DNA of 63,990 bases, filler included, from Malassezia furfur (taxonomy: Eukaryota), in assembly GCA_052055015.1 (NCBI GenBank). It is 4 parts of 4 records of this genome, joined end to end, with 100 filler letters (N's around TTAATTAATTAA, not from the genome) between each part and the next. Parts side by side here need not be neighbours in the genome. Positions count along the whole stretch, not along the records: positions 50,644 to 63,990 come from JBQJIT010000320.1; 3 more parts are not named here. One strand, given 5' to 3'. The position numbers were made by a program, and so were the translations under genes. The notes under the pieces were generated by a model. The model worked only from the letters and a program-made list of their open reading frames with translations. It was not told the DNA's origin and did not search any database. Below, one piece after another: positions 3,383-63,990 of the stretch. Within the stretch, counting starts at the first letter, position 1, and every line of letters begins with the position of its first letter.

Positions 3383-5839
3383 ATGACGGACGCACCGAGC
3401 GCGGCCGTCGAGCCCGTGCCGCAAGCGCTCGACACGCACCTACCGCAGCTACTGGCGGTGGCCCACGCACACCCTGACGATGCAATTGCGAGTGTCGCGC
3501 GCGAAGCGCAACCGCTCTGCGACGCTGTCCAGTCCGCACGCGACGCACTCCGCGCCGCCAAGGAACGCGACGGCGGCGCTGCGAGCCTGTACGAGGAGGT
3601 GTTGGCCCAGACCGTGCACGCCAAGGTGCTCACCTTTGCGCTCCAAGGCACGATGCAGGACGTCGCGGGGCGCCTCGACGTCGCGTTTGCGCTACAGCGC
3701 CTCGGCATCACTGACGCATCGCTGCCGGCCGCGGCGCTGGAGGAGTGGATGGAGCGCTCGACCATCCCCGCCTGCACCCAACTGTTTGCTTACATGCAGT
3801 CGCGCGCGGGGCCGCTGACGGAGGGCATGGTCGCAAATGCGGGCAAGGGCCTCGTGGTGCTGCGCCTGTGCAACGAGCTGCTCCGCCGCCTGTCCAAATC
3901 GCACAGTCCCCACACGGTGCTCGCCGGCCAGATCCTCACCTTCCTCTCCACGCACTTCCCCATCAATGAGCGCAGCGGCGTCAACCTAAAAGGTGAATTC
4001 CACGTTGAGAACGAGACGCCCATTGAGACCATCGACGCGCCCGATGCCGCGTCGGACGACGCGCCGCGCTCGGCGGAGGCCCACGCTGCGGACCCGCACT
4101 TTTATACCCTATTTTGGAGCCTGCAGTCCTTCTTTTCCAACCCAGCCCGCCTGTTTGAAGAGGGTGAGCATGTTGTGGTGCCTGGCGCGGAGTCGGCCGT
4201 TGCGATGCACCTCTGTGAGGCTACCGATGCGCCGATGCGTATCTTCCAAGCGGTGGCCGACTGCGTTTTGCCCGTGCTGCAAAAGTACAACCGCGCGGAT
4301 CCGCACCCTGCGAAGCGTGCGCGCATCGATGCAGATGCCGCGACCTTCTTCCCGAAATACCTCACCGGCAAGACCATGCTGGACTACGAGCTGAGCGACG
4401 CACAGTTCCGGCGGCACATCCTCACCCAGTTCCTCATCCTTTTCCAGTTCTTGCTGGGCTGCTCCCAGACGAGCCGCGAACGCACTACATCGTGGACGAA
4501 TAAGCTGCTCATCCCCCCGTTCACGCTCGCCGAGGCGGACGAAAAGTGGACGCGGCGCGCGTGGCGGCATGTACAGACGCAGCTGCGCGACACCGGCAGT
4601 GATGGGCGCGAGTACCTGTCGCTGCTGCTCCCCGTGCTGCGCCGCGAGAGCACCTGGATCCAGTGGAAGGCGGCAAGTGCGCCGACGCTCGAAAAGACGC
4701 CAAGCGACTGTCTCGATGCGCGCGCGGCGGCCGAGAAGGAACACGCCGCATTTCAAGCGCGCCTGGCGCAGTACCCGTACGCGCTTGGGACGCCTGCGCT
4801 CAGCATGCTATGGGAGGACGGCTTCCAACCCACGGCGCCTTCGGAGGTGCAAGTGCACGACGAGGAAGGCAACGTCAAGACGCTTGCGACCGACGGACTC
4901 GAGGACCTCGAGATGCCGCCCGTCCCGCCGTCGCTTGTGTCGCTCAGTCGGTCGATGCACATGGAGGAGCAGCGCGCCAAGCAACGCCGCGCCGCGGTCG
5001 GCGACGACGCGCAGGACGAGACGCTGATGCGCATCCAAAACACGCAGCAGAGTTTGGTATGGCGTGCGCTACGGAGCATCGATGCGTCTCAGCTGCGCTT
5101 GCTGGCGTGCATGGAGGGCATTGACGATATCCCTGGCCTGCTCAAGGCGATCCAGGCCGAGAAGCAGGGCGATGCCTACGAGGCGCCGATGCTGCGCGAG
5201 GCCGACGAGGAGCAGGATAAGACGCAGCGTGATGCCGAGGCCAAGGAGCAGGAGCGGCTCGAGGAAGAGAAGCGTGCACAGGAGGAGCGCGAAGCCAAGG
5301 CGCGCGCCGAGAAGCGCGCCGAGGAGAAACGCGCCGAGGAGAAGCGCGCCGAGGAGAAGCGCGCCGAGGAGAAGCGCGCCGAGGAGAAGCGCGCCGAGAA
5401 GAAGCGCGCTGAAGAAAAGCGCGCCGAGGAACAGGTCAACGCCGAGCGCGCCGAGAAGGAGCGGCAGCAGGCTGAGCAGGCCGAGATGCAAGTCGACGCG
5501 GCCACCGAGCAGCCAGCCTCGCAAGACGAAGCGCCTGACGAGCATGCAGAGCCGGAGCAGGACGAATCCGGTGCAGACGCCGTGCCGTCGCACACCGCCT
5601 CGCCTGGCATCAATGGCGAGCACGACACAGACGACGAGGCTGGGTACCCGTCGCAGATGCAGGTCGATGTGCCCGACTCCTCGTCGGTGCACACCGCAGA
5701 CGAGTTTGATCAGCGCTCGGCAGGCGCGACGCCCGACGTCGATGCAGACGCAACATTCATGACGGCGCCGCGCGCGGGGCCGTCGAGCGGTGAATCGTCG
5801 CGTGAGTCGACACCGGTGCCGCTGCGGTCGGACGACTAG
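3383..5839 (+). CDS. THOC1: THO complex subunit 1 (Thoc1/Hpr1)
   Basis: GKGLVVLRLCNELLRRLSK, FPINERSGVNLKGEF, FFPKYLT, FRRHILTQFLI and WIQWK motifs. Confidence 0.9.
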   Translation: MTDAPSAAVEPVPQALDTHLPQLLAVAHAHPDDAIASVAREAQPLCDAVQSARDALRAAKERDGGAASLYEEVLAQTVHAKVLTFALQGTMQDVAGRLDVAFALQRLGITDASLPAAALEEWMERSTIPACTQLFAYMQSRAGPLTEGMVANAGKGLVVLRLCNELLRRLSKSHSPHTVLAGQILTFLSTHFPINERSGVNLKGEFHVENETPIETIDAPDAASDDAPRSAEAHAADPHFYTLFWSLQSFFSNPARLFEEGEHVVVPGAESAVAMHLCEATDAPMRIFQAVADCVLPVLQKYNRADPHPAKRARIDADAATFFPKYLTGKTMLDYELSDAQFRRHILTQFLILFQFLLGCSQTSRERTTSWTNKLLIPPFTLAEADEKWTRRAWRHVQTQLRDTGSDGREYLSLLLPVLRRESTWIQWKAASAPTLEKTPSDCLDARAAAEKEHAAFQARLAQYPYALGTPALSMLWEDGFQPTAPSEVQVHDEEGNVKTLATDGLEDLEMPPVPPSLVSLSRSMHMEEQRAKQRRAAVGDDAQDETLMRIQNTQQSLVWRALRSIDASQLRLLACMEGIDDIPGLLKAIQAEKQGDAYEAPMLREADEEQDKTQRDAEAKEQERLEEEKRAQEEREAKARAEKRAEEKRAEEKRAEEKRAEEKRAEEKRAEKKRAEEKRAEEQVNAERAEKERQQAEQAEMQVDAATEQPASQDEAPDEHAEPEQDESGADAVPSHTASPGINGEHDTDDEAGYPSQMQVDVPDSSSVHTADEFDQRSAGATPDVDADATFMTAPRAGPSSGESSRESTPVPLRSDD
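5303..5430 (+). repeat. Coding 15-bp tandem repeat (GAGGAGAAGCGCGCC) encoding (EEKRA)n, about 8 copies
   Basis: Directly visible tandem array inside THOC1. Confidence 0.95.
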
Positions 5840-5844
5840 GTAGG

Positions 5845-7368
5845 CTAGGTACGTGAACGCTTGCGGGGCGTGTCCTCCAAGACGCCTCGTAAGGTTTGTA
5901 GTAGTGCGTCTGCATCGGGCACACGGTCGTGGGGCACAGCGTCGCGCGCGCGCTTCGCCTTGGCGGTCAGCTGTCCCTCGGCGTCGCACTCGTGCATCGT
6001 GTCGAGTTCGCGTTCGAGCCGCTTGACGAGCTGGGAAATCCCTTGCCGAATGCGCGGCGCGATGGCCTCGGTATGCAGCCGCGTCTCCCAGCCTGCTGCA
6101 ACGTACCATGCGAGCCGCATTAGGTGCGGAAACCGAAACTTGCGCGGCACCCGCGTCGCGATCTCCATCTCCTCCAAGCGCCAGTGCATCTGCACGTTAA
6201 AGTCCGACAAGAAATTCCCACCAATGACCAGCGTATCCTGCGGCGTGTGCACAGCATGAATCCACCCCGCGGGGATGAGCATCGTCTCGCCTGTCTTGAT
6301 TTCAACGCGCGAGAGCTGCTGCAGCGCATCGCCGAGCCACTCCGACGCTTGCCGCGCCGACGACGTCCACGCGCGGTAGGCGGCCAGGTTGGCAGGCGTA
6401 GGTGGCGCAAACAAAAATACCTTGCGGCCCCAAACCACATGGTAGTACACGTAGCTTGCCGCAAAATCGATATGGAAATCGGTAAAGGCTCCCTGCACGC
6501 CCATCAGCACGTAGCGCTGCACCTTGGGCCATTTGCTCGCGTCGTCGGCCGCCGGACGCTTGTCACGCGGCCAGTCGCGCTCGACCCAGTCGCTCTCGAC
6601 AACCATCGCCGGGGCAGCCACCATGGACTCCATGGGCGTGCCCGTGACCTCGAGACTGATGACGTTAAGCACCTTTTCACGCTCGGCAGCAGGCGTCTCA
6701 AAATAGGTCGCCCAGTCGTCCAGCGTCCAGGCAGACGACGACATTTGCGTCTGCACGTCAATAACTTCCACGTTCGTTTCGGGGCCTACAAGCCGCGCAA
6801 CGTCGCGGATCGTGGTTGTCTTTGGCGGCACACGCATGCCTTCGATCCGCATTTCTCCGTCGTCCGACGCAGGCACCAGCGTCGGTGCATCTAGCGCATG
6901 CTCGTCCGAGACAAGCCAATCCCTCGTCCAGGTCGCAGAGGGTACATGCCTTGCAACGCTGGGGAGCGTTTGGCAGTGCGCCATGTACTGCGCCCAGCGC
7001 CCTAGGGGATCGGGCGGACGTCCTTCCTGGATAGCCGCATAGTTCGTCGAGGGCCGCTCGCGTGCCGACCGCCGCCGCGGCGCGCGCATGGTGTGCGTAA
7101 ATCCCTCCGCCTGGCAAGCTTCACAGCACCACTTGGCATAGTTCTCGACATCGTCTAGACCCAGGCACGCGGTATGAAACCACGACCCGCATCGGAAGCA
7201 CGCGACCCACAAGCTCTTGTCGAGGTCGTCATGGGCCGTGCATTTTGGGCACCGTTCTTCGTCTTCGTGCGCGGGTTCCGGACTCGACTCCTTCTTGGAC
7301 ACAAAGGGCGTAGTAGGTGAAGTGACCCCCTCTTTCGCGTCTTGTTGCCCCACACAGGGCGCGTGCAT
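5845..7368 (-). CDS. JHD1: PHD + JmjC histone demethylase (Jhd1/KDM2-like)
   Basis: PHD finger (CPKC...WVACFRCGSWFHTAC), FTDFHIDF and IPAGWIHAVHTP; start codon uncertain. Confidence 0.88.
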   Translation of the reverse strand: MHAPCVGQQDAKEGVTSPTTPFVSKKESSPEPAHEDEERCPKCTAHDDLDKSLWVACFRCGSWFHTACLGLDDVENYAKWCCEACQAEGFTHTMRAPRRRSARERPSTNYAAIQEGRPPDPLGRWAQYMAHCQTLPSVARHVPSATWTRDWLVSDEHALDAPTLVPASDDGEMRIEGMRVPPKTTTIRDVARLVGPETNVEVIDVQTQMSSSAWTLDDWATYFETPAAEREKVLNVISLEVTGTPMESMVAAPAMVVESDWVERDWPRDKRPAADDASKWPKVQRYVLMGVQGAFTDFHIDFAASYVYYHVVWGRKVFLFAPPTPANLAAYRAWTSSARQASEWLGDALQQLSRVEIKTGETMLIPAGWIHAVHTPQDTLVIGGNFLSDFNVQMHWRLEEMEIATRVPRKFRFPHLMRLAWYVAAGWETRLHTEAIAPRIRQGISQLVKRLERELDTMHECDAEGQLTAKAKRARDAVPHDRVPDADALLQTLRGVLEDTPRKRSRT

Positions 7369-7404: not shown

Positions 7405-8704
7405 ATGTCGTCCAAGAAATGGGACGAAGAGCTCGGCGCGTTGCTCGGGCTGGGTACGTTATCCACTAATGCCAGATGCGCAGAGCATTAGTGAACAAGT
7501 GCTGCCGTACCTCTCCACGCACACAACGCCTACAGCGCTCCGTCTGTACCTGCAGGATCTGATCGGAACGTCGCCCAAGGCCAAAACCCTCACGGAGCAG
7601 TTTGTCGCCGACCGATTTCCGTCGCAGGGCTCCGCGTCGGCTCCACCTGCACCCAAGCAGCCTCAGACACAGAAGCCAGCTGCTGTATCTTCGCAAGCGG
7701 CGAATGTCGAGTCGCCACGCAAAGTGGCGGCCAAACCGGTTCGCCTGACCCCCAGCAATGTGACTGCTGCACTCGCCGCAACCGAGACAACGGCACCGCG
7801 CACCTTGCCGCCGACGCAGGAGATGAAGGAGCTAGATACCGCATTTTCAATGCTTTCAATGGAGCCGTCGTCCTCGGAAGCAAGCGCGTTTGCACCTCCG
7901 ATCCGACGGCTGTGTCTGTGCCAGGGCGCTAAGCACCCGCTGGCCGAACACATGCCACTGTGCATGGCATGCGGCCTAATTCTATGTTCTGCACTTCGAC
8001 CGGTGCCTGTATCGCCCTACTCGGCATGCCCATCGTGCAATGCCCAGCCCATTGTCCCACCCCATACCCGCACGCAGCTGCTCAACCAGCTGCTCGAAAA
8101 GCGCGAGCAGCTCGTACAGGAACAGCAAGAACAAGAGGCCGAACGCAAAGCCGAACTCGCGCGCAATCGATACGCCGAGACGCCGTTCCCAACATTGCAA
8201 GGAACGCCTGCACCTACTGAGCCCGCGACGACGGCGAAACGCAACCGCGTGCTGCACCTCGACATGAAGACGCACAAAGTCACTGTGACGCGCCGCAAAG
8301 AGAAGCCCACGGCGGCGCCGAAAAAGACCCCCGAGCCGTCCATCTCGAGGGAAATGGCGACGACTGCTGAGGACGGTTCAGCGCTGGTCCACAACTATGA
8401 AGACATTGGATTCCGCCAACGTCATCCTGAAAAGGGGGCTCTGTATGAGCGCGCCGCTGAGCAGCATCGTGCCATGTCGACTTTGCCCCCTATGTCCTAT
8501 GTACCGGTCGAGAAGCGCGCCGCGCCGCTGGAGCCCGTGTGTTCCGAGGTGGACACCGAGGTGCCGGACCTGGACCTGCTCATTCAGGCCCGGCCGCCTG
8601 GCAGCTCTGCCGACGTCCAGCGGCGCAATAAGAACGCGGCCATTTCGGCCGGTGTCGCGCGTGCGCAGGGCCGCAAGACCGGCAAGCCTTCCAAGAAGCG
8701 GTAG
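7405..8704 (+). CDS. zf-C2HC5 protein (Rqt4/TRIP4/ASC-1-like), 22-nt intron 7454-7475
   Basis: CLCQGAKHPL...CMACGLILC...CPSC zinc finger; exon 1 MSSKKWDEELGALLGL joins in frame. Confidence 0.75.
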
Positions 8705-8797
8705 CCCATAGTCACGTGCACACCCGCACGGAGCAGGGCGAGACGGTCCGCGGCTCGTCGGCACCGACTTGTCGCGTCGGACTACGTGGATACCAGA

Positions 8798-50643: not shown

Positions 50644-53600
50644 GTCCGAGCACGGCGCTCGTCATGTTCTGCGGCGTGATCAGCACGTACTGCACGCCCT
50701 GCGATGCCTTCGCCGCGTCGATCTGGGTGAGTCGGCCCCACGTACAATCATCTTCATCGACACCTTGCGGTTGACCGCGTCCATGAACACGTCAAACTCG
50801 TCGAGGCACCGAATCGGGCACCCGATCGCCTCCCACAGCGCGAGCAGCAGGCAGATGGTCGCGAAGCTCTTTTCGCCGCCGGACAGCGCCTTGGGGTCCT
50901 TGTCGTGTCCGCGGGACGCGTCGTTCGTCTGCACGCGCAGCTTGAGCGTCTGTGCGTTGTGGTCAAAGTGCAGCGAGCCCGCAAACCCGCGGTTCTGCAG
51001 GTGCAGCGCAAAGTTGGTGCGTGCACGGATCGCCACGTGCCGGCGGAAGTAGTGCCACTTGTCGAGGCGGACGTGGATCGCGCGGTCGAGCACGGCGATC
51101 GTCGCGCGCGTACTGTCGAGGTACTGCTTCGCCTCTTGGAACGCCTTGTTCTTCGCACGCAGCTCGCGCACCACCGTCTCGAGCTGCAGGCCGGCGTGGC
51201 GGTCGGCCTCGGCGAGCTGCGCCTCGATCGTGTTGATCTGCCGCTCGAGCCACGCAGGCGTGCGCCGCGTCTCGACGCGCGGGCAGTACTCGGTGGCCTG
51301 CGCGGTCCATTCGTCGACCTGCTGCGAGAGCGCCGCCTCGTTGCGCTCAGTCGACGCGATCAGCTCCGTCTGCGCGGCGATCTGCGCCGTCCAGTACTCT
51401 TCGTTCTTGCGCAGCCGCACGCGCTCCGAAAAGATGGACTGCAGCTCGTCCTGGATCGTGCGGCGCTCCGACGCGAGGATCTCGACCTGCTCGCGCAGCT
51501 GCTCGGCGCGCTCCGCGTGCGGAGCGAGCGCCTCCTGCTGCGTCTCCTTGCGGTTCTCGAGCGACTTGAACTGCTCGACGATGCGCGCCATCTCTTCCTC
51601 GGCGTCGTTGCGTGCCTCTTCGAGCGCCGCAACGTTCGCTGGCTCGTCCTCGCGCATCTCGTCCTCGACACGCGCGATCTGCTGCCGCAGCGCGCGGTGC
51701 GCCTGCTTCAGCTCGGCGAGCGACTGCTCGGCGCGGCGCAGCTCGCGCTGCGTGCGCTCCTGGCGCTCGCCGTGTGCACGCAGCGTGTCCTGCACACGCG
51801 CGAGGTCCGCGCGGTACGTGCGCATCGTGTCCTGCGCCTCGGCGACCTGCGCACGCGTGTCGGTGGCGAAGCGCGGCACGCCCGGCGCCGCGTTGAGCGT
51901 CTGCGTCGAGCTGCCCGTCGGCCCGCCCGTGATGCGGAACAGGTCCATCGAGAAGCAGCGCAGCACGTTGGCGGGCGCCGCGCGCATCAGCCGGTCGCCC
52001 TGCGCACGCTCGCGCACCAGCGCGCTCTTCTCTATGTCCGCGCCGGTGATCAGCGCACGCGTAATGTAGGGGTCATCGATCTCGAGCGCACGGAGCACCG
52101 TGAGGATCTCGGCGCTCGGCTCGCCGTGCGCATAGTCAAAGAGGTCGGGCGCCGCCGTAAAGATCTGCACACGCACCTGGTGCTGCTGCAGGATGCGCGT
52201 CAGTAGCGCACGGTCCGCGTGGTTCGTGACGCAGAAGGCATTCAGCGCGTCGTTCAGCACCGCCTCGACCACGGGCGCCCACCGCGCGTCGCGCAGGCGC
52301 ATGTGCATGCCGAGCGGCCCGACGGGCGGCTGCCGCCAGCGCGTCTCGCGCGCAATGTCCGCGAGCACCTGCGGCATGCCACGCCCGCCGAATGCCGTGA
52401 CGCGGTTCGCCGCGGCGTCCTCGCAGCGGCGCACAAACTGCTCGAGGTGCGCGAGCTTCTCCTCGAGCGTGTTGCGCTCCGCGGCGTGCTGCGCGCGCTC
52501 ATCGCGCTCCGCGTCCTGCTGCGTACGCAGCGAGTCGATCTGCTCGGTCGCAGCGACCTGCGCCATCTCGTTGTCGAGCCGCTCCTGGTTGAGCGCGTCG
52601 CGCCGCGCCGCCTGCTCGTCGCGCACCGCGCGGTGGTCGCGTTCCAGCTTGCGCGCCTCGGCGTCGATCTGCGCTTGGAAGTGGCGGATGGTGTGCTGCA
52701 CGCGGTCGGCCTGCTGGCTCACGTCGCGCTCCTGCGCCTTGATCGACGCGAGCTCCGCGCGGAAGGTCTTCATCGCTTGTACTTCAGTCGCGCGCTGCTC
52801 GCCGAGCGTGCGCTCACGCTCGTTGCACTCGCCGTTGCGCTGCTCGAGCGCGGCGATCTGGGCGTCGAGCGCCGCGCCGCGCTCGCGGTCCGCCTCGCAC
52901 TTGCGCTGTAGTGCCTCGTGCTTTGCGCGCGCACGCACGAGCGCCTCGACGGCGTCGGCCAGCTCGGTCTCCTTGGCGATCACTTGGCTCCACACCAGCT
53001 CGTCCTTGAGGCTGTTCAGCTTCTCCTGCTCGGCGCGCGCCTGCTCGACGAGCTGCCACTTGGCGTTCGCCTCGCGCGCCTCGCGCTCAAGGTCGGGCAG
53101 CAGCTCCTCGGTGGTGACCATGGCGCGCTTCATGCGCTGGATGTTGGTCTGGATCAGCTCGTACTCCTGCGCGAGCTGCGTCAGCTGCGTGCCGCGCAGA
53201 AAGAAGCTGTACTTGTCCTCGGGCTGCGCGCTGCCGAGAAACTGGCGCGCAGCGTCCTGCGTCAAAATGTTCATCGGGTTGTCGACCTGGATGTTGGCGT
53301 GGTCGCAGATCGCATCGAGTTCCTCGCGCTTCGTCGACACCGTCTTGCCGTGCGCGCCGCGAATCTTCCACGCACCGTTGCCGTCCGCGTGGATGCGCCG
53401 CTCCACCGTGATGGTGTCGCCGTACGTGTCCGGGCGGAATGCGTCGCGCCCGCGATTGCTCAGGTGCACACGCACCTCGGCGGCACTGGCTCCTTCACGC
53501 ACAAAGTCCTTGATGCTGCTCCCGCGGCTCGTCGTGCTCGCCTTGCCGCCGAGCGCAATGGTGATGGCCGTGAGGATCGCACTCTTGCCGCTCCCGTTGT

Positions 53601-54018
53601 GCCCAATGATAAAGTTGATGCGGGGGCCCAGCGCAATGCTCAGGTTCCGGTGGCACATGAAGTTGATCATGTCCACACGCTCAATGACGCCCATCGACTC
53701 GGACGCCGGTGCGTCGCGCACGATGGGCGGCGTCGGCGCCACGGGCGACGCACTGCGCTCCGTCACACTATTCGCTGCATCTGCCGCTGCGTCCTCCTCC
53801 TCCTCTGTAGGCGTCGCGTCGCGCTCTGCCGAAGCATCACGCGTGTCCAATACCGGCTCATTGCCCGACGCGTCCTGCTCGTCGTCCGACGGTGTGGCGA
53901 TACGCGCGCGTTTTGACTGCGTCAGTGTGCCACGTACAAATAGCTCCAAGTCCTCGCGCGCCGCGTCCTGCGCGTCGCCGTCGTCCTCGCGCGCGGACGC
54001 CGCGCGCCGCTTCGCCAT
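50644..54018 (-). CDS. SMC6: Structural maintenance of chromosomes protein 6 (3'-truncated)
   Basis: NFMCH, GHNGSGKS Walker A, coiled coils, LSGGEKSF, CLDEFDVFMD. Confidence 0.95.
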
Positions 54019-54341
54019 GAACGTTGGGACCTCCACCGACGCGTGGCGCACACGCGCGAGGTGCCGGGGCATAATTCCCCGCGCGGCCGATGCGTCGCCA
54101 GTGGTTTTCCCTCCACGCCACGAAGAGAAGATGTTTGCGGGTGCGTCGGCCGCACTGACCCCAGGAGCTCCGACCCCTTCGCCGCTTGAGCAGGCCATCA
54201 CGCGCCTGCGTGCGCGCCGTACGCTGCAGTCCTTTGCCGCCCTCGTCGGCGTGCTGCACTTTGGTGCGTAGGCCACACGACTCACCCAGCGCCCTACATC
54301 CTGCACTTTCTGAGCACTTCGCTGCGTCGCGCCTAAGTAGC

Positions 54342-55423
54342 CTACAAACTAGCTTTGCGCTCGTCGTCCCATTCCTCGTCGGGGTCGCGCGTGAACGCAA
54401 GCTTCTCCGTCTTGCGCTCGTCGTCCTCCTCGGCGACTTGCTCGACGTCTTCGGGGTCGATCACGTACTTGAGCAGGAACGCCGCAATCACGTCAAAGTA
54501 CTTGGGCTGCAGGCACGTGTCGTCTGGGGTCAGTTTATGCTACGCACTGTGCATGCCGCCGCGGAAGGAGTGAAACTCTTTGTTCTTGCTCGAGCACGCC
54601 TCGTACAGCCGGCGCATGTGCGACACGGGCACCAGCTCGTCCTTGTCGCCGCTCAAAAAGAGGATCGGCATGGTCTTGGGCATACGGCGGATCGTCTCGC
54701 CGGACGGCCAGCACTCGCCTGGGTCAGTCGTGCGGCACGTACGGCACAAGAACCGGAAAGGACCTAGCAGCGGCATCAGTGTGGGAATGAGCTCCGGCAG
54801 GCTCAGGAAACTGCGTCAGCACCCACGCGCACCACGTACGTGTTCTCTAGAATCGCTCCGTACACGCTCTTGGGGTTGCGCTCGGCCAGGTCGATCGAGA
54901 CGGCGCCGCCGATGCTCTGGCCGTACACGATGACCTTGGTCTTGGACAGCGTCGGGTGCGCACGCACCCAGTCCAACATAGTCTGCGCATCGATGCGCAG
55001 CCCCGCCTCGGATGGCTCACCACTCGACAGACCGTAGCCACGGTAGGAAAGCATCACGACGTTGCACCCGAGCCGGCGGTAGAACACGACGGCGAGCGGC
55101 AGGCGGTGGCCCATGTTGCCCGCGTTTGCGTGGAACATGAGGATGGTTGGCCGCTGCTTCGCGACCTCCTCGTCGTCACCGCCGCTGCCCTTTTGCAGCA
55201 TCAGGTAGACGTGGAGCTTCTCGCGGTCCGGCGTATTCAGGCGGAACTCTTGGAAGGGCAGATCATAGCGATCAGGAGTGTCGACCTCGGTACGTGACCC
55301 CTCGGGGAATGACGAGGGGTAGATCAGTGCGCGCTGGTACACAAACAGCAGGCCGGCCGCCGACGCAACGCCGACGGCGACCGTGCCCAGCGCAACTCGC
55401 GTCACCCAGTGCCAGGTGGACAT
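54342..55423 (-). CDS. BEM46: Bem46/ABHD13 alpha/beta hydrolase
   Basis: YQRALIYPS, FHANAGNMGHR, YRGYGLS, GQSIGG, LENTF. Confidence 0.9.
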
Positions 55424-55482
55424 GCAGGACGTGTGCACAAGCCATGCGCTCGGCCGAAGGAGGCGCGTTCCCCCACACGACG

Positions 55483-57104
55483 ATGGCGGCGCCGCTGTAC
55501 AGTGCGTAGCGAAGTGACTCACCCAGCGACGCAGTCGGGCCGGCTCTGGCATGCGTACGTCGCCGCCCACCACTGACCCAGGGGACAAATCCTCGTCGTG
55601 ACCGTCGGACTGCCGGGCCGCGGCAAAACGCACCTGGCGCACGCCATCCAGCGGTACCTGCTGTGGCTCGGTGTGAAGTGCAAGGTGTTCAACCTGGCCA
55701 ACGTGCGCCGCGACGTGCTGGGCCCGCTGAACGAGCTGCCGAAAGACTACTTTGGTCCTGCGCCGCGCCACGAGAAGACGTTCGCGATGAAGGAAAAGGT
55801 GCGCGAGCGTCTCCAGAAGGAGATTGGGCGCTTCTTTGAAGAGGGCGGGCAGGTCGCCGTGTACGATGCCAACAACAGCACACAGAAGCAGCGTAGCGAG
55901 ATCCGGCGCCAGTTCTCGAGCGGTAAGATCCAGATCATGTTCATCGAGTGCGTGTGCGACGACGAGGAGTTGATCGCCCAAAACATTCGCTCCGTGTATC
56001 AGTCGAACCCGGACGTACGTGGTGGTGCTCACACAGTATCTCGGCTGGGATTTGGGTGACGTGATGTCCAGCTTCATGCAGCGCATTGAGCGGCACAAGC
56101 AGTTCTACGAGCCGATCACCGACCCGTCGTTCCCGTACCTGCAGCTCATCAACCTGGGCCAGCGCATCGTGATGAACAACGTGCGGGGCTACCTGCAGAA
56201 CCGCATTGTGTTCTTCCTAATGAACATTCACAACCGCGATCGCACCATCTACTTTGCCCGCGCCGGCGAGGCGCTCGTCGAGCACTCGTACAAGGCGGAC
56301 GCCGAGCTGTCGTCGCTCGGCAAAGAGTATGCCGAGCGCCTGTGCGAGTTTGTCATCTCGCTGCGCGAGTGCCACCAGCCGCACTTTACCACGGCGCCGG
56401 CGCCCTCGCAGAAGCACAGCGTGTCGTGGTTCTCGCAGCAGTCCAAGCCCGTGTCGCCGCTCCCCGGCCCGCCGAGCCGCAGCTTGGAGGTGTGGTGCTC
56501 GACGCGGAAACGCTCGGTGCTCACTGCGGCCCCCTTCCTGCGCATGGGGTGCAAGGTCCGGGAGCACTCGCGCCTGTGCGAGATGAACCCCGGCGTGGTC
56601 GATGGCATGAGCAGCGAGGAGATTGCGCAGCGCTTCCCGGACAGCATCGAGAGCAAGGAGCGCGATCCGTACCGCTTCCGCTTCCCGCGCGCCGAGAGCT
56701 ACCACGACTTGGCGATCCGTCTGGAGCCCATCATCTTTGAGCTCGAGCGCACGCGCGAGGACGTGCTGATCATCGGGCAGTCGTCCGTGCTGCGCTGCCT
56801 GATTGCGTACCTGCAGGGCAACAAGCCCGCCGAGATCCCCTTTATCCAGGTGCGCGAGGGCGACCTTGTCGAGATCTTGCCGCAGGCGTTCGGCGTGTCG
56901 TCGCACGTGTACTCCTTCTGGGATCCCGAAAAGAAGCGCCAGGAACGCGACATCGAGTTTGCGATCCGCGCCGCTGCTGCGCTCGCCGAGGAGTCGTGCG
57001 AGAGCGACACGGCCGGCAACGATGCCGCGGCGGCCGACAGCGCTTCCGACGCCGATGCGACGCCCAGCGCTCCGGCACAGTCGGAGCCGGTCGCGCAGCC
57101 GTAA
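55483..57104 (+). CDS. 6-phosphofructo-2-kinase/fructose-2,6-bisphosphatase-like protein (YLR345W-type), 3 introns
   Basis: LYTTQSGRLWHAG, VGLPGRGKT, DANNST, RFPRAESYHDL. Confidence 0.88.
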
Positions 57105-57137
57105 TCCATCGCATACACTACGTAGGCAAGCGCATCC

Positions 57138-58154
57138 TCACTGTGTCAGTCGTCACACGCACCCAGGCATATTTGTCGCTCTTGAGCCGCTGGCGCCGGT
57201 CGAGCATGGCCTCGCTCAGCCGGCCCTCGCGCTGGGCACGCTCCAGTGCCGCACGGTCGCCCGACGCAAGCCGCACGCGCGACCCGGCGTTCCAGCCTTG
57301 GCGCGAGCGGCTGATGCGCTCCTCGTCCAGCACGTTGCCCCGGTCGAGCTTCGCCGTCTTGCGCGCCGCACGGTGCGCATGCCGCACCGCGTGCCGAAAC
57401 TTCCACTGTACGCTCGCGTCCCACACACAGCGCTCGTCGAGCTCGTCGGCGTCCGCGCGCACACTCTGCTTCTTGTCGCCCGACGCACTCGGTTCGTACG
57501 CGAGCCACTTGCCGTGCGCCGACTGGAACGCGATCCCACGCCGGGGCCCCAGCACTACGTTGCTTGGCAGTGGCGCATCCGCGGGGCGCGCATACGCCAC
57601 GTCCACCACCTTGACGACCCATTCTTCGTGCGGGCCGCGCGCCTCGTTCGTCGCAGTGACGCTGCCAAATTTGTCGCTCGCAAGAAATGTGCCAGGTGCG
57701 CTCTTCAGGGTCCACTGCTCGAGACCGGGCAGCTTGTTTGCGACCCACACCTGGTTCACGTTCACCGGCGCGAGGTCCGCACCGACCACCATCGCACCGT
57801 CTTCTAGCACGCTGCCAGACAGCTCGGGCGCATCGACATTCGACGTCTCGACCTGGCTGAGCGGCACATTGAAACTCAGTGCCACGCCGCTGCCCCCGTC
57901 GGTCTTCTTGTAGATAAACGTAGGTCCATTCAGCTCGTCACACGCCTCGACGGGCACCCACGCTGCGTCAGAACGCACGCACCACCTACCCTGCTCGTCG
58001 CCGCCGTACATTTCCGCGTCCGACTCGTCATCCTGGTGAAAGGCGCGCACCGGCGCATCCGTCTCGCGCTTAACACGCTTGCGTTTCGGCTGCGTTCAGC
58101 ACACACACGTACCTTGTCGCCCTTGAAGGTCAGCCGCAGCGATTTGCCTGACAT
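57138..58154 (-). CDS. FRG1: FRG1-like protein, 3 introns (last exon supplies only the stop)
   Basis: LTFKGDK-PKRK, FLASDKFG, ARGPHEEW, AQREGRLSEAMLDRRQRLKSDKY. Confidence 0.85.
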
Positions 58155-58192
58155 GGAGGAATTCGCACAAATTTGCGCAAACGACTCCACAC

Positions 58193-59075
58193 TTGGAAGC
58201 GGCCGCCCTGGTCCAATCCGTGCGGGGTCAGCTTGCGCGCGCTGTGCGCCCAGTTCGTTTGCCCGCTGCGAGCCTCACAGCTCTCGCCTTAGACATATGC
58301 CTCGTTGGGACGGGCGTGCGCACCGCAACGCTGATCGACCAATTTGCGCCGTCCTTGCGCGCCTGTGAGGCCATGGCCGATGCACTCTCCAACGTACCAG
58401 GCATGGACCCTATCCTCTTGGTCTTGTTTGTGCCGGCAAAACAGGTATTTGTCGTGCACCGTACACGCATGCAGGCGCAGTATGAGCAGCCTGGAGCGCA
58501 CACCTACGTCAATATCGCACCCAACCATGCACCCACCGTACGCTAACTGCCTCATACAGCTCACTATCCTGCCACAAGGCACTTCGCACCTGCTTCATCA
58601 CATCTACAATGCCTGCAAAACATCACACGCCCTCGTCTTTCTCACCTCAGATGCACCTTACGAGGCGCGACAGGCAATGATACCCGCAGCTGGCTGGCTG
58701 CTAGGATACCCCGTTGTGTATGCCTTGGATGATGCACGGCCTCCCATCACCCCAGCATGGAACTACGATTGGGACGATACCCACGACGACGATTGGGTCG
58801 CCGTGCCAACATGCCTCGTCGATGTGTCGCTCTACCTGGTCACGGCACAACTCCGTCTCCCTGCATCCTTCGCGGATGCTCTTAACCTACACACGCATAC
58901 CCTTCTAGCATTCACGGTGCCTGGCAACCTACCCAACGCGTCGCAACTCGTTCAGAATGCGCGTGGGTCCGTGCATACAAATCTTCTTGAGGGCCTGCGG
59001 CGTACCAACCGGTGGAACGATGCAGAATTGACCGTACACATCGACCAAGCCGCCATGGATCGTGTCGCTCTATAG
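58193..59075 (+). CDS. DUF4504/C1orf74-like hypothetical protein; start codon unresolved
   Basis: LALDICLV..GVR.ATLID and AGWLLGYPVVY; short intron near 58538-58559. Confidence 0.55.
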
Positions 59076-59305
59076 CTAGGAAGCTCCTTGGCCCCCTGCC
59101 TTTTTTGCGGCGGCCGCCTGCGTTAGGTCGTGACCTACCTCCTGCTTGGCACGCAGCGCCGCAGCGTCATGCTCGCGCCGCTGGGCCAACGACATGCCGC
59201 TGGTGTTCTTGCCCTTGTTTTGCTGGGCCTGCTTCTTCTGGTTCTTTGCACGAGCGAGCTCCCGAGCGTTACCGCCTGCGTCAGTCACAGCAACTCACGC
59301 GTCAT
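59076..59305 (-). CDS. SERF/4F5-family small protein, 2 introns
   Basis: MTRGNARELARAKNQKK...QRREHDAAALRAKQ. Confidence 0.9.
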
Positions 59306-59434
59306 GCTTAAAGACAGAAGCACGTGGTTAGATGGTGTTCGATGGTGTTTTGACGCCTAGTAGGTCGCGTGCGTAAATTGATAAGCGGTATGTGGGGGGA
59401 CCTTCGCAATCTGACTCGTTTAACCGTCTTGACC

Positions 59435-60526
59435 ATGCGTCTGGTTTCGAGTGCTGCACTCCGGTATGCCGCTCCTCTTGCGCCCAAATATGTAGCAGGA
59501 CGTCATCTGAGCACTTCGGCCGTGCGCCCGCGCAATCTGCTCACACTCGCCGACATGACCATCCCGGAGCTGGATGCTCTGCTCCAGCGCGCCGCCGATT
59601 TCAAAAAGACCTACAAGACACATATCCAAAAGAGCGCGGCTTTCGAGCACACTCTTCAAGATAAAACCATTGCACTCATTTTCAGCAAAAGGAGCACGCG
59701 CACGCGCGTTGCGAGCGAGTCTAGCACTGCGCTGCTCGGCGGTCACCCCATGTTCCTTGCGCCTTCTGATATTCAGCTGGGTGTGAACGAGAGTCTTCTT
59801 GACTCTGCGTGTGTGATCAGCTCTATGGTGGACGGTATCATGGCGCGTGTGGGTGGCCATGATGAAATCGAGACGCTCGCGAAATACTCGCAGGTGCCTG
59901 TCATCAATGCGCTCTCGAGCCGCTTCCACCCAACGCAGATCCTTGCCGACCTGCTGACCATGTTGGAGACCATGTCAGAGCCAGGAGCGCCATTGAAGCC
60001 GCTTTCGGCCCTTTCTGGGCTCAAGGTGTCTTGGGTCGGTGACTCTAACAACATTCTCAACGATATGCTCGTCACCTATCCTCGTCTGGGTATGGATCTC
60101 AGTGTCGCTGCCCCGAAGGGCGATGCCTATGCGCCTGACCAAGTCGTTTTTGACCTGATGAACAAAGGCCTGGCGGCGGAGAAGTCGGACAAGCCTCAAG
60201 GCGCCGTGGAATGGATCCACGACCCGTACCAGGCTGTTCGCGATGCTGACTACATCGTCACTGATACTTGGATCTCGATGGGTGACGAGGCATCCAAGGA
60301 ACAGCGTCTTATTGACTTCAACGGATTCCAGGTCACCGAGTCTCTGGCCAAGCAGGGTGGCGCCAAACCCGACTGGAAATTCCTGCACTGTCTTCCGCGG
60401 AAGTCGCAAGAAGTGGACGATGACGTTTTCTACGGCGCGCGTTCTTTGGTCTTCCCCGAGGCAGAAAACCGCAAATGGACGATTATGGCGTGCTTTGATT
60501 GGCTTTTCGGCCTCAGGCCACTTTAG
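59435..60526 (+). CDS. ARG3: Ornithine carbamoyltransferase, mitochondrial
   Basis: FSKRSTRTR, HPTQILAD, DTWISMG, FLHCLPR, FPEAENR. Confidence 0.98.
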   Translation: MRLVSSAALRYAAPLAPKYVAGRHLSTSAVRPRNLLTLADMTIPELDALLQRAADFKKTYKTHIQKSAAFEHTLQDKTIALIFSKRSTRTRVASESSTALLGGHPMFLAPSDIQLGVNESLLDSACVISSMVDGIMARVGGHDEIETLAKYSQVPVINALSSRFHPTQILADLLTMLETMSEPGAPLKPLSALSGLKVSWVGDSNNILNDMLVTYPRLGMDLSVAAPKGDAYAPDQVVFDLMNKGLAAEKSDKPQGAVEWIHDPYQAVRDADYIVTDTWISMGDEASKEQRLIDFNGFQVTESLAKQGGAKPDWKFLHCLPRKSQEVDDDVFYGARSLVFPEAENRKWTIMACFDWLFGLRPL

Positions 60527-60630
60527 TCACGCACGGACATTCATTGCCTACCACCGGGTCAAATTAGCAATTTTAGTACTTAGGTGACAGAACGATTGAC
60601 ACCCTCGTCTTTGCCACACGCACAGTAGCA

Positions 60631-61138
60631 ATGGTGAAGTTTTACGATTTGAAGGCGGCGCTGCCGAAGGGCCAGACCTATGATTTCAGCCAGCTGCACA
60701 ACAAAGTTGTGCTGATTGTGAACACGGCTAGCAAGTAAGTTTGAAACTACTAATCGCAGGTGTGGTTTCACCCCGCAATTCGAGGGTCTGGAGAAGCTGT
60801 ACAAGGATTACAAGGACCAGGGCTTCACGATTCTTGGCTTCCCTTGCAACCAGTTTGCTCACCAGGACCCCGAGAACGATGACGGAATCTCCAACTTCTG
60901 CATGGTGAACTATGGCGTGAGCTTCCCGATTATGGCCAAGTCGGATGTGAACGGTGCGAATGCGAACGAGGTATTCAAGTTCCTGAAGCACGAGAAGCCG
61001 GGCATGCTGGGCCTCGAGGCAATCAAGTGGAACTTCACCAAGTTCTTGGTGGACAAGGAGGGCAACGTCGTCTCGCGCTACTCGCCGACGACGAAGCCCG
61101 AGTCGATCGCAGCCGACATTGAAAAGCTACTGAAGTAA
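60631..61138 (+). CDS. Cys-type glutathione peroxidase (Hyr1/Gpx3-like), 1 intron
   Basis: VNTASK|CGFTPQ, LGFPCNQF, KWNFTKFLV. Confidence 0.95.
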
Positions 61139-61147
61139 TTAAGTACA

Positions 61148-61455
61148 TCAAGACTTCTTGTCCCATTGTCGAGATAGGTTTTGAAGTAAAGACTCGATTG
61201 GGGATACAGAGTTGGAGGGCGTTGTGTTCAGGCTCTGTAGCCGTGGTTTGCCTGCGTGAGTGGTTCACGTACCTCCTTCTTCCTGGATCTTGGAAGCGAT
61301 ATATTCACGTTTCCGTGTCCGGTTGTACGACTTGATCAGAAATACACTCGAGAACATAGAGATCGTCATGAACGTCCACCTTATGTTAGGCAAGAAGAAA
61401 CATACAAGGCATACATTCGCCCTGGCGACCATTTGGTAGTCTTGGCCTGCTGCAT
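61148..61455 (-). CDS. 86-aa single-TM small protein (possibly DUF4748-like); introns 61380-61405 and 61252-61272
   Basis: Two canonical micro-introns give an intact frame, MQQAKTTKWSPGRMYALWTFMTISMFSSVFLIKSYNRTRKRE...WDKKS*. Confidence 0.65.
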
Positions 61456-61523
61456 TTCGCGTGGAGGCAGACGCAAAACTACGTCTCCGCGTACGGTGCC
61501 ATTTTTTTGCGCACGGGGCAAAT

Positions 61524-62478
61524 ATGGAGTCCCAAGGTTACGAGGAGCTAGTGCTTCTCCAAGCAAGTCTAACAGACGCCGAATTCCAATGGCGTGGTAC
61601 TGCGGATGAGATAGATGCATGGAAGTCAAAACTGGCTGCCTTTGAGCGTGGAGAATGCCTCACTCCGGACACCATGCATTTCTCGCTGCAGGTAAGCGAG
61701 ACCTTGGGAATCTGGATGAACGTTTCTTTGGAGACTGGGAGTCATGAAGACGCTTTTCCCGGGATTACCATGGTCAGCTCAAGTGATGTCGTGCCGCTTG
61801 ACAAACTCAACGAGCTCGTCGACCAGCGGCGCTCTGAGTTGAGCAGCGAGAGTACGTGTATATAATGACCCAGATCTCCCCAACCCGGTCTTCGACATAT
61901 ACACAGCTCTTCGGGAGTATGTGTTTCCATTTGAAGAGGGATACCAGTCACATTCATCTGAAACATTAATCTCTGAGAAGAAACCGCCGAAACATCTTAT
62001 TATGAAACGAGTCATTTTCTGGTCTCATCATCTTGTTGCGCCATCGAAGCGGAAACAATTTGCGGCGTGGTGCCCAGAACTCCAAGTATGGGGCCTTTTG
62101 AAGTTGGGATACCCAGGCTTTCTTCTTTTCGAAGGTGAGGCAGAGGATATCGATGATATGGTCCGCCGCGTAAAGGTACGCTGCTCTCTTGACACAGAAC
62201 ATGCAATGGCATGCCATCTCTATGCGAGTCGAAGTCACCTGGTCTTTTGAGAGCCAAAATAAACCTGAAGATATTCACACACAGGCGCTTCGTTCATGTG
62301 CACTGGCTGCAGGGCGCTCGGTGGTCGAGGGGCCCAAGCTTCGCACAGATTGCCAAGAAGTGCAAGACATGGGCCAGTTTGTTGCTACGTACGTTGCATC
62401 GGCTTATACAGACTGCGCCGGCTTTCATTACCTGAGGAGGAGATTGTCGATGCTTGCCATTTACGCAAGACGCAGTAG
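61524..62478 (+). CDS. RWD/DUF1115 domain protein, 3 introns
   Basis: RVIFWSHHLVAPSKRK..WGLLKLGYPGFLLFEGE..VRRVK|NMQWHA. Confidence 0.8.
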
Positions 62479-63045
62479 CAAAAAATTGGGCGCGTATGCA
62501 CCTGCACGGACCCTGCGTGCGCGCGAGGCGGGCCAAGACCCTTGTATAGCGAAGCAAAAACTTCATTGGGCTATACCGCACGACGCATGACCGGCATGTG
62601 CCCGAGGGCACAAAACAAGCCCCCATATGGCCTTTGCTCTTCACTTTCATTGAATAAGCTCCGGACGGTACCAAGGAAGGAAGAGCACAGGAAACAGAAT
62701 ACCATTTACACCCGGAGCTGCTCTCGAAAGAGACTTCACGCAAGAGTCTTCGGCACAAATTGTCCCTCAACTTGCGGACAGAAACACACAGTGAGAATGC
62801 AAGTCATACTTGCCTGTTTGACGACAACGCCGTTTCTGCTTGAATTGTCATGTTAGGATTACCAAGTGACTACATCGCTGGGATCCGAGTCGCTAGCGCA
62901 GCGCTAGATATACCAGCGCATCAATAGATCAATCTACCATCTCAGGTGACGAATATGCCACCGAGAACGAGTAGGACGTGCGACTGCGTCTCCAGGAGAC
63001 CAACGTGCAGGGTGTCCAAAGGCCAATGTGGGGGCTTGTCGTGAA
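62475..63045 (-). ncRNA. TER: Candidate telomerase RNA (ends approximate)
   Basis: In order 5'->3': enclosing helix 63017-39/62615-36, template UAAUCCUAA 62853-61, pseudoknot 62635-62719, P5/P6/P6.1-like junction 62514-62587, Sm site AAUUUUUUG 62479-87. Confidence 0.75.
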
Positions 63046-63065
63046 ACTACGATTCCGCTTAGTCA

Positions 63066-63856
63066 TCAGCACAACGCCTCGAGTGCTTGGTGCGTGCGCG
63101 CTTGCGACTCGCGCTGGGTGAGTGAGCCACGTACAATCAAGCGCGAGATGTTCTTAAACTGCGGATGATCGGCGCTTCCTGGCATTAGATGGAGGCATAC
63201 CTAGCAGCTGAAATAGAATGGATTCCGAGGTTGCAATGTCGGCGCCTGCCTCGCGCATGGCCTGCATGAGCGGACGGCGTACCTGCACTGCAATGTTCAC
63301 CTCCTTCCCATTGCACGAGCTAATTCCGTCACGGACAACGTGGATGCGCGCTCCCTTCTGGGAAAGGTCCTGTACGGTCTGTAAGACGCAGAAGTGGGCT
63401 TCAATCCCGCAAAGAATAAACTCGACGTCTTGGTAGGAATGACCCTTCCCCGTTGCGTTCCTCAGCATATCGAGCAATCGGCTTCCATGTGCCATACTAA
63501 ACTCACGTTTCGGCTCGATGGCATGCTGCGAAACTGACTTGATCTCGGAGGCCAATTGGGGTACTGTGGATCCCAGACCTGGGTTAACGAGCGGCGTACC
63601 TTGCGGGTACTGTTCGGTAGCAAGCACTGGCATTCCTAGGTACCCTGCCGCTTTGGTGAGTTTGACAGTTGTTGCGACCACATCGTCAAACTTGTGGATC
63701 GCATGACTTGGTCAGTGGGATTGCATACGCGAACTAGGTGAGCAGTGTCACCTACGCGTTCCTGTATATCGCTGCATCAGCGGCTCAAACCTACCATACC
63801 AGCAGCACAGCCGGCTTCGAGAACGGCAGCGCACGGTGCACTGCGGAGGCTGTCAT
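63066..63856 (-). CDS. Isochorismatase-domain protein (ISOC-like), seven 21-23 nt introns
   Basis: VCDIQERF, TEQYPQGLGSTV, K.EFSM, GIEAHFCVLQT, TSESILFQL. Confidence 0.9.
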
Positions 63857-63919
63857 GGTTTGGGGAAGTTGCACGTGGTACGTGACTACCGATTAATTAC
63901 GTCTACGAAACGGTCACGT

Positions 63920-63990
63920 TTACTCGTAGATCCACTCGTCCGCCGAGCGCTTGTAGTCGATCGTAGCGCTCTGCTCGCCGAACCACAGGG
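63920..63990 (-). CDS. 3' end of an unidentified gene at the window edge
   Basis: Open frame LWFGEQSATIDYKRSADEWIYE*. Confidence 0.4.
   Translation of the reverse strand, partial: LWFGEQSATIDYKRSADEWIYE

Follow-up and report, generated by a model that had tools for sequence, protein, structure and literature searches.

Gene order at the telomerase RNA locus

The current analysis deals with a 63,990-nt stretch of DNA, filler included, from Malassezia furfur (GenBank assembly GCA_052055015.1), called the window throughout, and with a telomerase RNA (TER) locus in its last part (positions 50,644 to 63,990, from JBQJIT010000320.1). On the basis of sequence comparison, positions 62479-63043 of the minus strand, ~560 nt, are identified as a TER locus of the published Malassezia type. 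The locus is preceded on the same strand by the nucleoside diphosphate kinase gene NDK1 and an isochorismatase-family gene (ISOC) and is met from the other side by a DUF1115-type gene; this synteny of NDK1, ISOC, TER, and the convergent gene matches the published Malassezia arrangement. Several of the features listed below were defined by the minimum free energy (MFE) fold of the RNA.

63920..63990, minus strand: 3' end of NDK1 (nucleoside diphosphate kinase); stop TAA at 63922-63920; extends beyond the window edge
63066..63856, minus strand: ISOC (isochorismatase-family/cysteine hydrolase, PF00857); ATG at 63856-63854, stop TGA at 63068-63066
63044..63065, minus strand: linker of 22 nt from the ISOC stop to the first conserved TER nucleotides; holds a second TGA and a UAG-UUU stretch
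63017..63043, minus strand: CACGA motif (63043-63039) and 5' strand of the enclosing helix (P1a 63039-63029; P1b 63025-63017); MFE fold, covariation
62977..63017, minus strand: conserved element with GGAC, GCA, CCUGGAG, and GCAC blocks; invariant alignment columns
62853..62861, minus strand: template-like UAAUCCUAA, the complement of 1.5 copies of a GGATTA/TTAGGA telomere repeat
62631..62695, minus strand: U/C-rich tract (62695-62671) and purine tract (62650-62631); putative pseudoknot-type pairing region, conserved in relatives
62615..62636, minus strand: 3' strands of the enclosing helix (P1b 62636-62628; P1a 62625-62615); MFE fold, covariation, shuffles
62530..62541, minus strand: P6.1-like hairpin GGGU-CUUG-GCCC of a CR4/5-type domain; within the nhmmer match
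62479..62487, minus strand: Sm-like site AAUUUUUUG; approximate 3' end of TER
61524..62478, plus strand: RWD/DUF1115-type gene with at least three exons; stop TAG at 62476-62478; 81-86% identity to the gene flanking six related TER loci

A preliminary description of this DNA had placed a double stop of ISOC (TGA TGA) at 63068-63063, a TER candidate 26 nt behind it on the same strand, an Sm site against the stop of the convergent gene, and a CACGTG at 63872. These readings were reproduced: the double stop is exact when read from the minus strand, with the spliced ISOC frame ending there and the second TGA (63065-63063) following the first directly; an 11-bp helix starts at 63039; the Sm-like site (62487-62479) directly touches the TAG at 62476-62478; and the CACGTG occupies 63877-63872 of the minus strand, between NDK1 and ISOC.

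A putative telomerase RNA has been described in 18 Malassezia strains (PMC12506658; Sanpedro-Luna and Sanchez-Alonso 2025), and a full-text literature search revealed no further paper on Malassezia TER. In that study, the locus has NDK1 on its 5' and the DUF1115 gene on its 3' side, a cysteine hydrolase open reading frame (ORF) lies between NDK1 and TER in at least five species, and the RNA comprises the elements CE1, template, pseudoknot region, P6.1-like hairpin, and an AAUUUUU Sm-like site. The label DUF1115 used here was taken from this source, and the label NDK1 was borrowed from its synteny. Pfam gave no match for the 23-residue NDK1 end in the window, a piece that is too short, and only a weak one for the convergent gene (PF06544, 21.9 bits at a cutoff of 27.6).

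Identity, fold, and 3' end of the RNA

Related loci were collected by scanning metagenomes, with a single exon from the convergent gene as the query; 90 stretches matched and six were confirmed (L001-L006, 81-86% identity). They represent three lineages, i.e., L001 and its duplicate L002, L003, and L004/L005, with L006 mixing the last two, and they align with the window across the whole RNA. A profile built from L002-L006, and thus independent of the window, gave a single nhmmer match at 62922-62527 of the minus strand with an E value of 1.5e-11 (next match, 1.9), which leaves out the first ~120 nt of TER. The fold of 63043-62479 has an MFE of -229.1 kcal/mol (z -5.04), and none of 100 shuffles was equally stable.

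An alignment of six sequences, from which L001 was omitted as a duplicate, yielded 147 predicted pairs with RNAalifold. These were 90.2% paired, compared with 84.6% in shuffles (0 of 500 reached the value), and 33 of them had changed on both sides, compared with 9.6 in shuffles (0 of 500) and 9 to 17 with slid partners; all these values have to be read with the caveat that the structure itself comes from this alignment, to which about four independent lineages contribute. The outermost helix of the alignment comprises 13 pairs, of which 5 changed on both sides (92.3% paired). The pairing region of the U/C-rich and purine tracts (helix 18) has 12 pairs, 95.8% of them paired, and the P6.1-like hairpin (helix 22) has 4 pairs, 100% paired, with one change from C-G to U-G. 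Upstream of the template, the conserved element at 62977-63017 probably corresponds to CE1 of the published model (PMC12506658).

The template-like UAAUCCUAA occurs once in the 64-kb window, where 0.03 occurrences are expected, and lies where L001-L006 have their template variants; three variants are found at this same position across the lineages. It fits the GGATTA telomere repeat reported for Malassezia yamatoensis (PMC10410736), a repeat that may not be that of the organism studied here; telomere motifs were not found in four supplementary files of PMC10410736. The Sm-like AATTTTTTG at 62487-62479 has two matches in the window, compared with 0.17 expected, and one Sm-like site with an AAUUUUU core lies beside the convergent gene in all six related loci. 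The distance from the enclosing helix to the Sm-like site is 552 nt in the window and 482-485 nt in the six relatives.

It is highly improbable that the locus is no functional telomerase RNA at all and represents a conserved structured noncoding region, or an element of a 3' untranslated region (UTR), with a chance telomere-like 9-mer. Such a view could draw on the term putative, which PMC12506658 applies to the Malassezia gene, and on Rfam, in which no family matched at the gathering threshold in the whole window and a search of 61500-63990 at E <=10 returned only three unrelated subthreshold hits. It is opposed by the three template variants at one position, by their reported agreement with the telomere repeat of each species in all 18 strains (PMC12506658), and by the domain order of template, U-rich/purine pairing, P6.1-like hairpin, and Sm site, which is accompanied by covariation.

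The 3' end of TER overlaps the convergent coding sequence, an arrangement that is newly described here. In L002, the convergent stop lies 4 nt from the Sm-like site. As a separate observation, the DUF1115-type coding sequence of L003 (4464-4500) and L004 (4454-4490) continues past the Sm-like site in antisense orientation, with ~6 extra codons compared to the window, so that TER and the convergent gene overlap there.

The upstream boundary and the origin of the transcript

The core of the RNA is framed by the enclosing helix, in which the MFE fold pairs 63039-63029 with the perfectly complementary 62625-62615 (P1a, 11 bp) and 63025-63017 with 62636-62628 (P1b, 9 bp). A perfect 11-bp helix from the first 60 nt was matched by 5 of 300 dinucleotide shuffles; by itself the helix is modestly unusual, and the comparison with relatives adds weight. 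When the window, L002, L003, and L004 were folded independently, it was the outermost element of each MFE structure and linked the extreme 5' part to the stretch directly after the purine tract. In every lineage, the helix core is directly preceded by the CACGA motif, and unbroken conservation in the L003-L006 clade begins ~26 nt upstream of this core. Counted from the last base of the first ISOC stop (63066), the gap is 26 nt to the helix start at 63039 and 22 nt to CACGA, and the structural 5' boundary of TER thus lies within 22-26 nt of the ISOC stop. Only 587 nt separate the stops of ISOC and the convergent gene, and nearly all of this interval is TER; an ISOC 3' UTR longer than ~25 nt would therefore contain TER sequence. 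No tRNA-like processing signal was found near the ISOC/TER junction. A 6-bp terminal stem in the MFE fold, formed by 63051-63046 and the tail beyond the Sm-like site, was dropped because it has no counterpart in the folds of the other lineages.

The gene that ends so close to TER is intact. The spliced ISOC model comprises eight exons and seven putative introns of 21-23 nt and yields an open 639-nt frame for 212 amino acids (aa). Its main exon, the largest piece of the ORF, matches the Isochorismatase family PF00857 with an E value of 1.9e-18, and 35 homologues at E <=1e-10 were found among 225 candidates; the nearest named one is a Malassezia japonica protein with 58% identity, and three others reach 87-89%. 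The NDK1 stop is 63 nt from the ISOC ATG, and the ISOC promoter is possibly located between the two genes. The C-terminal NDK1 reading in the window equals that in L002 and in L003/L004.

Malassezia introns are short. The putative introns of ISOC (63114-63794, minus strand) have GTA or GTAGG 5' sites, a CTRAY-like branch, and a YAG end; their 21-23 nt, like the 23 nt of an intron of the convergent gene near 62388-62410, are close to the lower size limit of spliceosomal introns.

The state of ISOC differs among the lineages. It is intact in the window and a pseudogene in L001/L002, where the 931-nt interval between NDK1 and TER holds a decayed ISOC in the expected place and on the expected strand (30% identity over 87 aa). 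This relic scored 29.3 bits in a protein-level search, a value not reached by any of 150 shuffles, and carries in-frame stops, a frameshift in the motif of the catalytic region, and, where the window gene has its fourth intron, an intron-like relic. In the ~760-nt spacer of L003/L004, no ISOC relic was detectable by protein search (31 of 150 shuffles scored as high for L003 and 69 of 150 for L004), and NDK1 is the nearest upstream gene in L003-L006, apart from L005, which is too short to show it. Judged from these sequences, ISOC was probably ancestral at the site and then decayed while TER stayed. The pseudogene lies at ~1184-2115 of L002, numbered along the TER-oriented segment, and is identical in two separate contigs.

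TER is co-oriented with its upstream gene or genes in all six sequences that are long enough (the window, L001-L004, and L006; L005 is too short), and NDK1 is the constant upstream neighbor in the same six. Over the 200 nt upstream of the helix, five cross-lineage pairs from the three lineages showed no detectable similarity (z -0.68 to 0.84), and hence no shared promoter motif was found. The idea that every lineage had kept a relic of the last ISOC exon and intron ahead of the helix was rejected since local alignments did not stand out from shuffles (z <=0.84). Within L003-L006, conservation reaches ~87-91% in a block that lies ~60-160 nt upstream of the helix, compared with 48-86% in the rest of the spacer, 94-96% in TER, and 95-97% in NDK1; this block could be a TER promoter or a precursor/processing element. 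L006 equals L003 in the spacer upstream of TER and L004/L005 from ~50 nt into TER, its origin being either recombination or chimeric assembly.

By analogy with Ustilago maydis, TER may arise from an mRNA-type precursor through transcription of the upstream coding gene, a proposal that could equally well prove right or wrong. RNA polymerase II would start upstream, at the ISOC and/or the NDK1 promoter, and transcripts would run across the linker of 22-26 nt into TER. The 5' end of TER would be generated by cleavage and/or 5'-3' trimming, halted at CACGA and the core-enclosing helix, and the 3' end would be set by Sm binding a few nucleotides beyond 62479, within the antisense of the convergent gene. 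This pathway would be that of Emi1-TER in U. maydis, where it has been shown, and of NDK1-TER in Malassezia globosa, where it has been proposed; in the window, the closest coding unit upstream of TER is ISOC. Read-through is made plausible by the co-orientation in all sequences of sufficient length, the lack of a shared promoter motif, the stop-to-stop interval that consists mostly of TER, the assembled M. globosa transcript that joins NDK1 to TER (PMC12506658), and the precedent of U. maydis, for which the route has been demonstrated by experiment (PMC9564094).

An unlikely variant is that one transcription event gives two products, i.e., that the ISOC mRNA is cleaved and polyadenylated in the 22-nt linker at UAG-UUU and the downstream fragment becomes a 5'-monophosphate TER. 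CACGA and the 20-bp enclosing helix, together with bound proteins, would then block the 5'-3' torpedo exonuclease, which normally destroys such a fragment. If true, TER would be made without cost to the host mRNA, unlike in U. maydis, and its survival despite the decay of the host ORF in L001/L002 would be explained as long as upstream transcription continues.

Similarly unlikely is a precursor that begins at the NDK1 promoter, in which case a three-part NDK1-ISOC-TER transcript would carry ISOC as a passenger rather than a host. The 1,756-nt assembled transcript of M. globosa, which extends from 25 nt before the NDK1 ATG through TER (PMC12506658), speaks for such an RNA, as do the constancy of NDK1 as upstream neighbor and the gap of only 63 nt between NDK1 and ISOC. 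However, the intact, intron-bearing ISOC would need its own translation start on this transcript, and the CACGTG and the possible ISOC promoter are placed between the two genes.

Several observations weigh against the derivation of TER from a coding-gene transcript. The envelope of the profile match ends at 62945, short of the helix region, so that the 5' boundary was drawn from structure, short motifs, and position only, and the covariation is subject to the caveat stated above. Furthermore, very short gene spacing is routine in this genome. Among 17 long ORFs checked in the window, 12 of them with Pfam support, the tandem pair of an acyltransferase and EMP24 is 51 nt apart from stop to ATG, and the convergent stop-to-stop gaps are 5 nt for THO1/JmjC and 60 nt for UCH/abhydrolase. 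With such gaps, either promoters and 3' ends routinely overlap the neighbors or read-through is common, and lack of room alone is thus no argument for co-transcription. The preliminary description had argued that ISOC and TER leave no space between them for a terminator and a promoter of their own; the spacing holds, but the argument is an interpretation and a weak one, since gaps of 5-63 nt are routine in the window. An independent start site with a promoter within the last ISOC exons is quite possible, and the conserved block of L003-L006 would point the same way if it were a promoter. PMC12506658 itself concedes that the M. globosa assembly may merge two overlapping transcript populations, and ascomycete TERs with an Sm site have their own promoter and a trimethylguanosine (TMG) cap (PMC9564094; Logeswaran et al. 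2022).

TER could accordingly be pictured as an independent RNA polymerase II gene of the small nuclear RNA (snRNA) type, with a start in the linker or the last ISOC exon, a promoter inside the ISOC coding region, and a TMG cap; its adjacency to ISOC would then reflect genome compaction. This explanation, the chief alternative to the precursor, is a real possibility, if not a probable one. With tandem gaps of 51-63 nt and convergent ones of 5-60 nt, promoters and terminators would routinely overlap neighboring genes; the block 60-160 nt upstream of the helix could serve as the promoter in L003-L006; and TER persists unchanged where ISOC has decayed. Outside Ustilago, the route via Sm site and TMG cap is the fungal norm (PMC9564094), and the increase in coverage across TER in M. 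globosa may be interpreted as a sign of separate transcription (PMC12506658). On the other hand, no motif upstream of the helix is common to the three lineages, and the flanks of the window and its relatives, read by eye, are without a TATA-like element. The M. globosa reads are continuous across the whole spacer (PMC12506658), and U. maydis, the closest experimentally studied relative, uses the mRNA route (PMC9564094).

Some further observations concern gene ends elsewhere in the window. Two convergent ORF pairs have 5 and 7 nt between their stops (5839-5845 and 8704-8712, respectively), so that their 3' UTRs must overlap the coding region of the partner; both ORFs of the former pair (THO1 and JmjC-cupin) have Pfam support, and of the latter only the plus-strand ORF. 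In the 60 nt after the stops of 27 ORFs, CTAG (7.8-fold), ATAG (5.6-fold), TAGA (5.2-fold), and TCACG (3.6-fold) are enriched over the whole window, and strings resembling TAGTCACGT follow both NDK1 and the ORF that ends at 8704. The TAG 4-mers and TCACG may represent a 3'-end or Cbf1-type signal, the enrichment being only suggestive since the background is mostly coding. Runs of N at ~16809 and ~50640 directly follow two long ORFs.

Overall, the origin of TER from an mRNA-type precursor is partly supported. The preliminary description had correctly cited the processing of U. maydis TER from a coding mRNA precursor (PMC9564094) and had proposed the same, with a changeable host, for the window. 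The comparative data, with ISOC intact, a pseudogene, or undetectable, fit this proposal, but the idea is not new: both the general claim that Malassezia TER comes from the transcript of an upstream coding gene and the position of the hydrolase were already published in PMC12506658, according to which the host differs from Emi1 (NDK1 in M. globosa). What is added here is modest: the 5' boundary is drawn more sharply, ISOC is recognized as the gene directly upstream in the window and as decayed in other lineages, and the 3' end of TER is seen to overlap the convergent gene in antisense. If TER is cut from an ISOC or NDK1-ISOC transcript, mRNA-derived TER biogenesis would extend beyond Ustilago, and one host gene could replace another and would not even have to remain a coding unit. 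With an intact intron-bearing gene 22-26 nt before the first TER helix, the locus lends itself well to a natural test of the idea; a read that joins spliced ISOC to TER would leave no ambiguity because ISOC contains introns and lies so near to TER.

Comparison with known telomerase RNAs

With the ascomycete TERs of the Sm class, e.g., TLC1 of Saccharomyces cerevisiae and TER1 of Schizosaccharomyces pombe, the window locus shares an Sm-type site near the 3' end. The TER 3' ends of S. pombe and Neurospora crassa are cleaved by the spliceosome (PMC9564094), whereas no 5' splice site was seen directly after the Sm-like site in the window and PMC12506658, in the accessible part of its text, reports none in Malassezia. 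The location of this site suggests that the 3' end matures in an snRNA-like way.

Malassezia and U. maydis belong to one fungal subphylum. In U. maydis, the mature TER has a 5' monophosphate, and its precursor, which codes for Emi1, is 7-methylguanosine (m7G) capped, alternatively spliced, and polyadenylated and undergoes correct processing when driven by a foreign promoter (PMC9564094). The processing of TER has thus been shown biochemically there, whereas the window locus is known from its sequence. Both have TER downstream of and co-oriented with an intron-containing coding gene and an AUUUUU Sm-like site near the 3' end. In contrast to U. maydis, the upstream ORF in the window encodes an isochorismatase-family protein (or NDK1) and not the twin Cx9C protein Emi1, whose M. 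globosa homologue lies on another chromosome (PMC12506658). The window TER is also much shorter than the 1,291 nt of U. maydis TER, and its 3' end enters the convergent coding sequence, whereas that of U. maydis lies 186 nt before the poly(A) site (PMC9564094).

A third system for comparison is the putative TER locus of Malassezia (MgTER; PMC12506658). The window differs from it in the intact ISOC, which ends 22-26 nt before TER in place of NDK1 with a ~760-nt spacer, in its template variant, and in the longer distance from the helix to the Sm-like site that also separates it from the six related loci. Insofar as the two models can be equated, the enclosing helix of the window begins upstream of the refined 5' limit given in PMC12506658. 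The two loci agree in the NDK1 and DUF1115 flanks, the compact size, and the order of domains, and this likeness extends to sequence homology, measured with the profile of the related loci at an E value of 1.5e-11.

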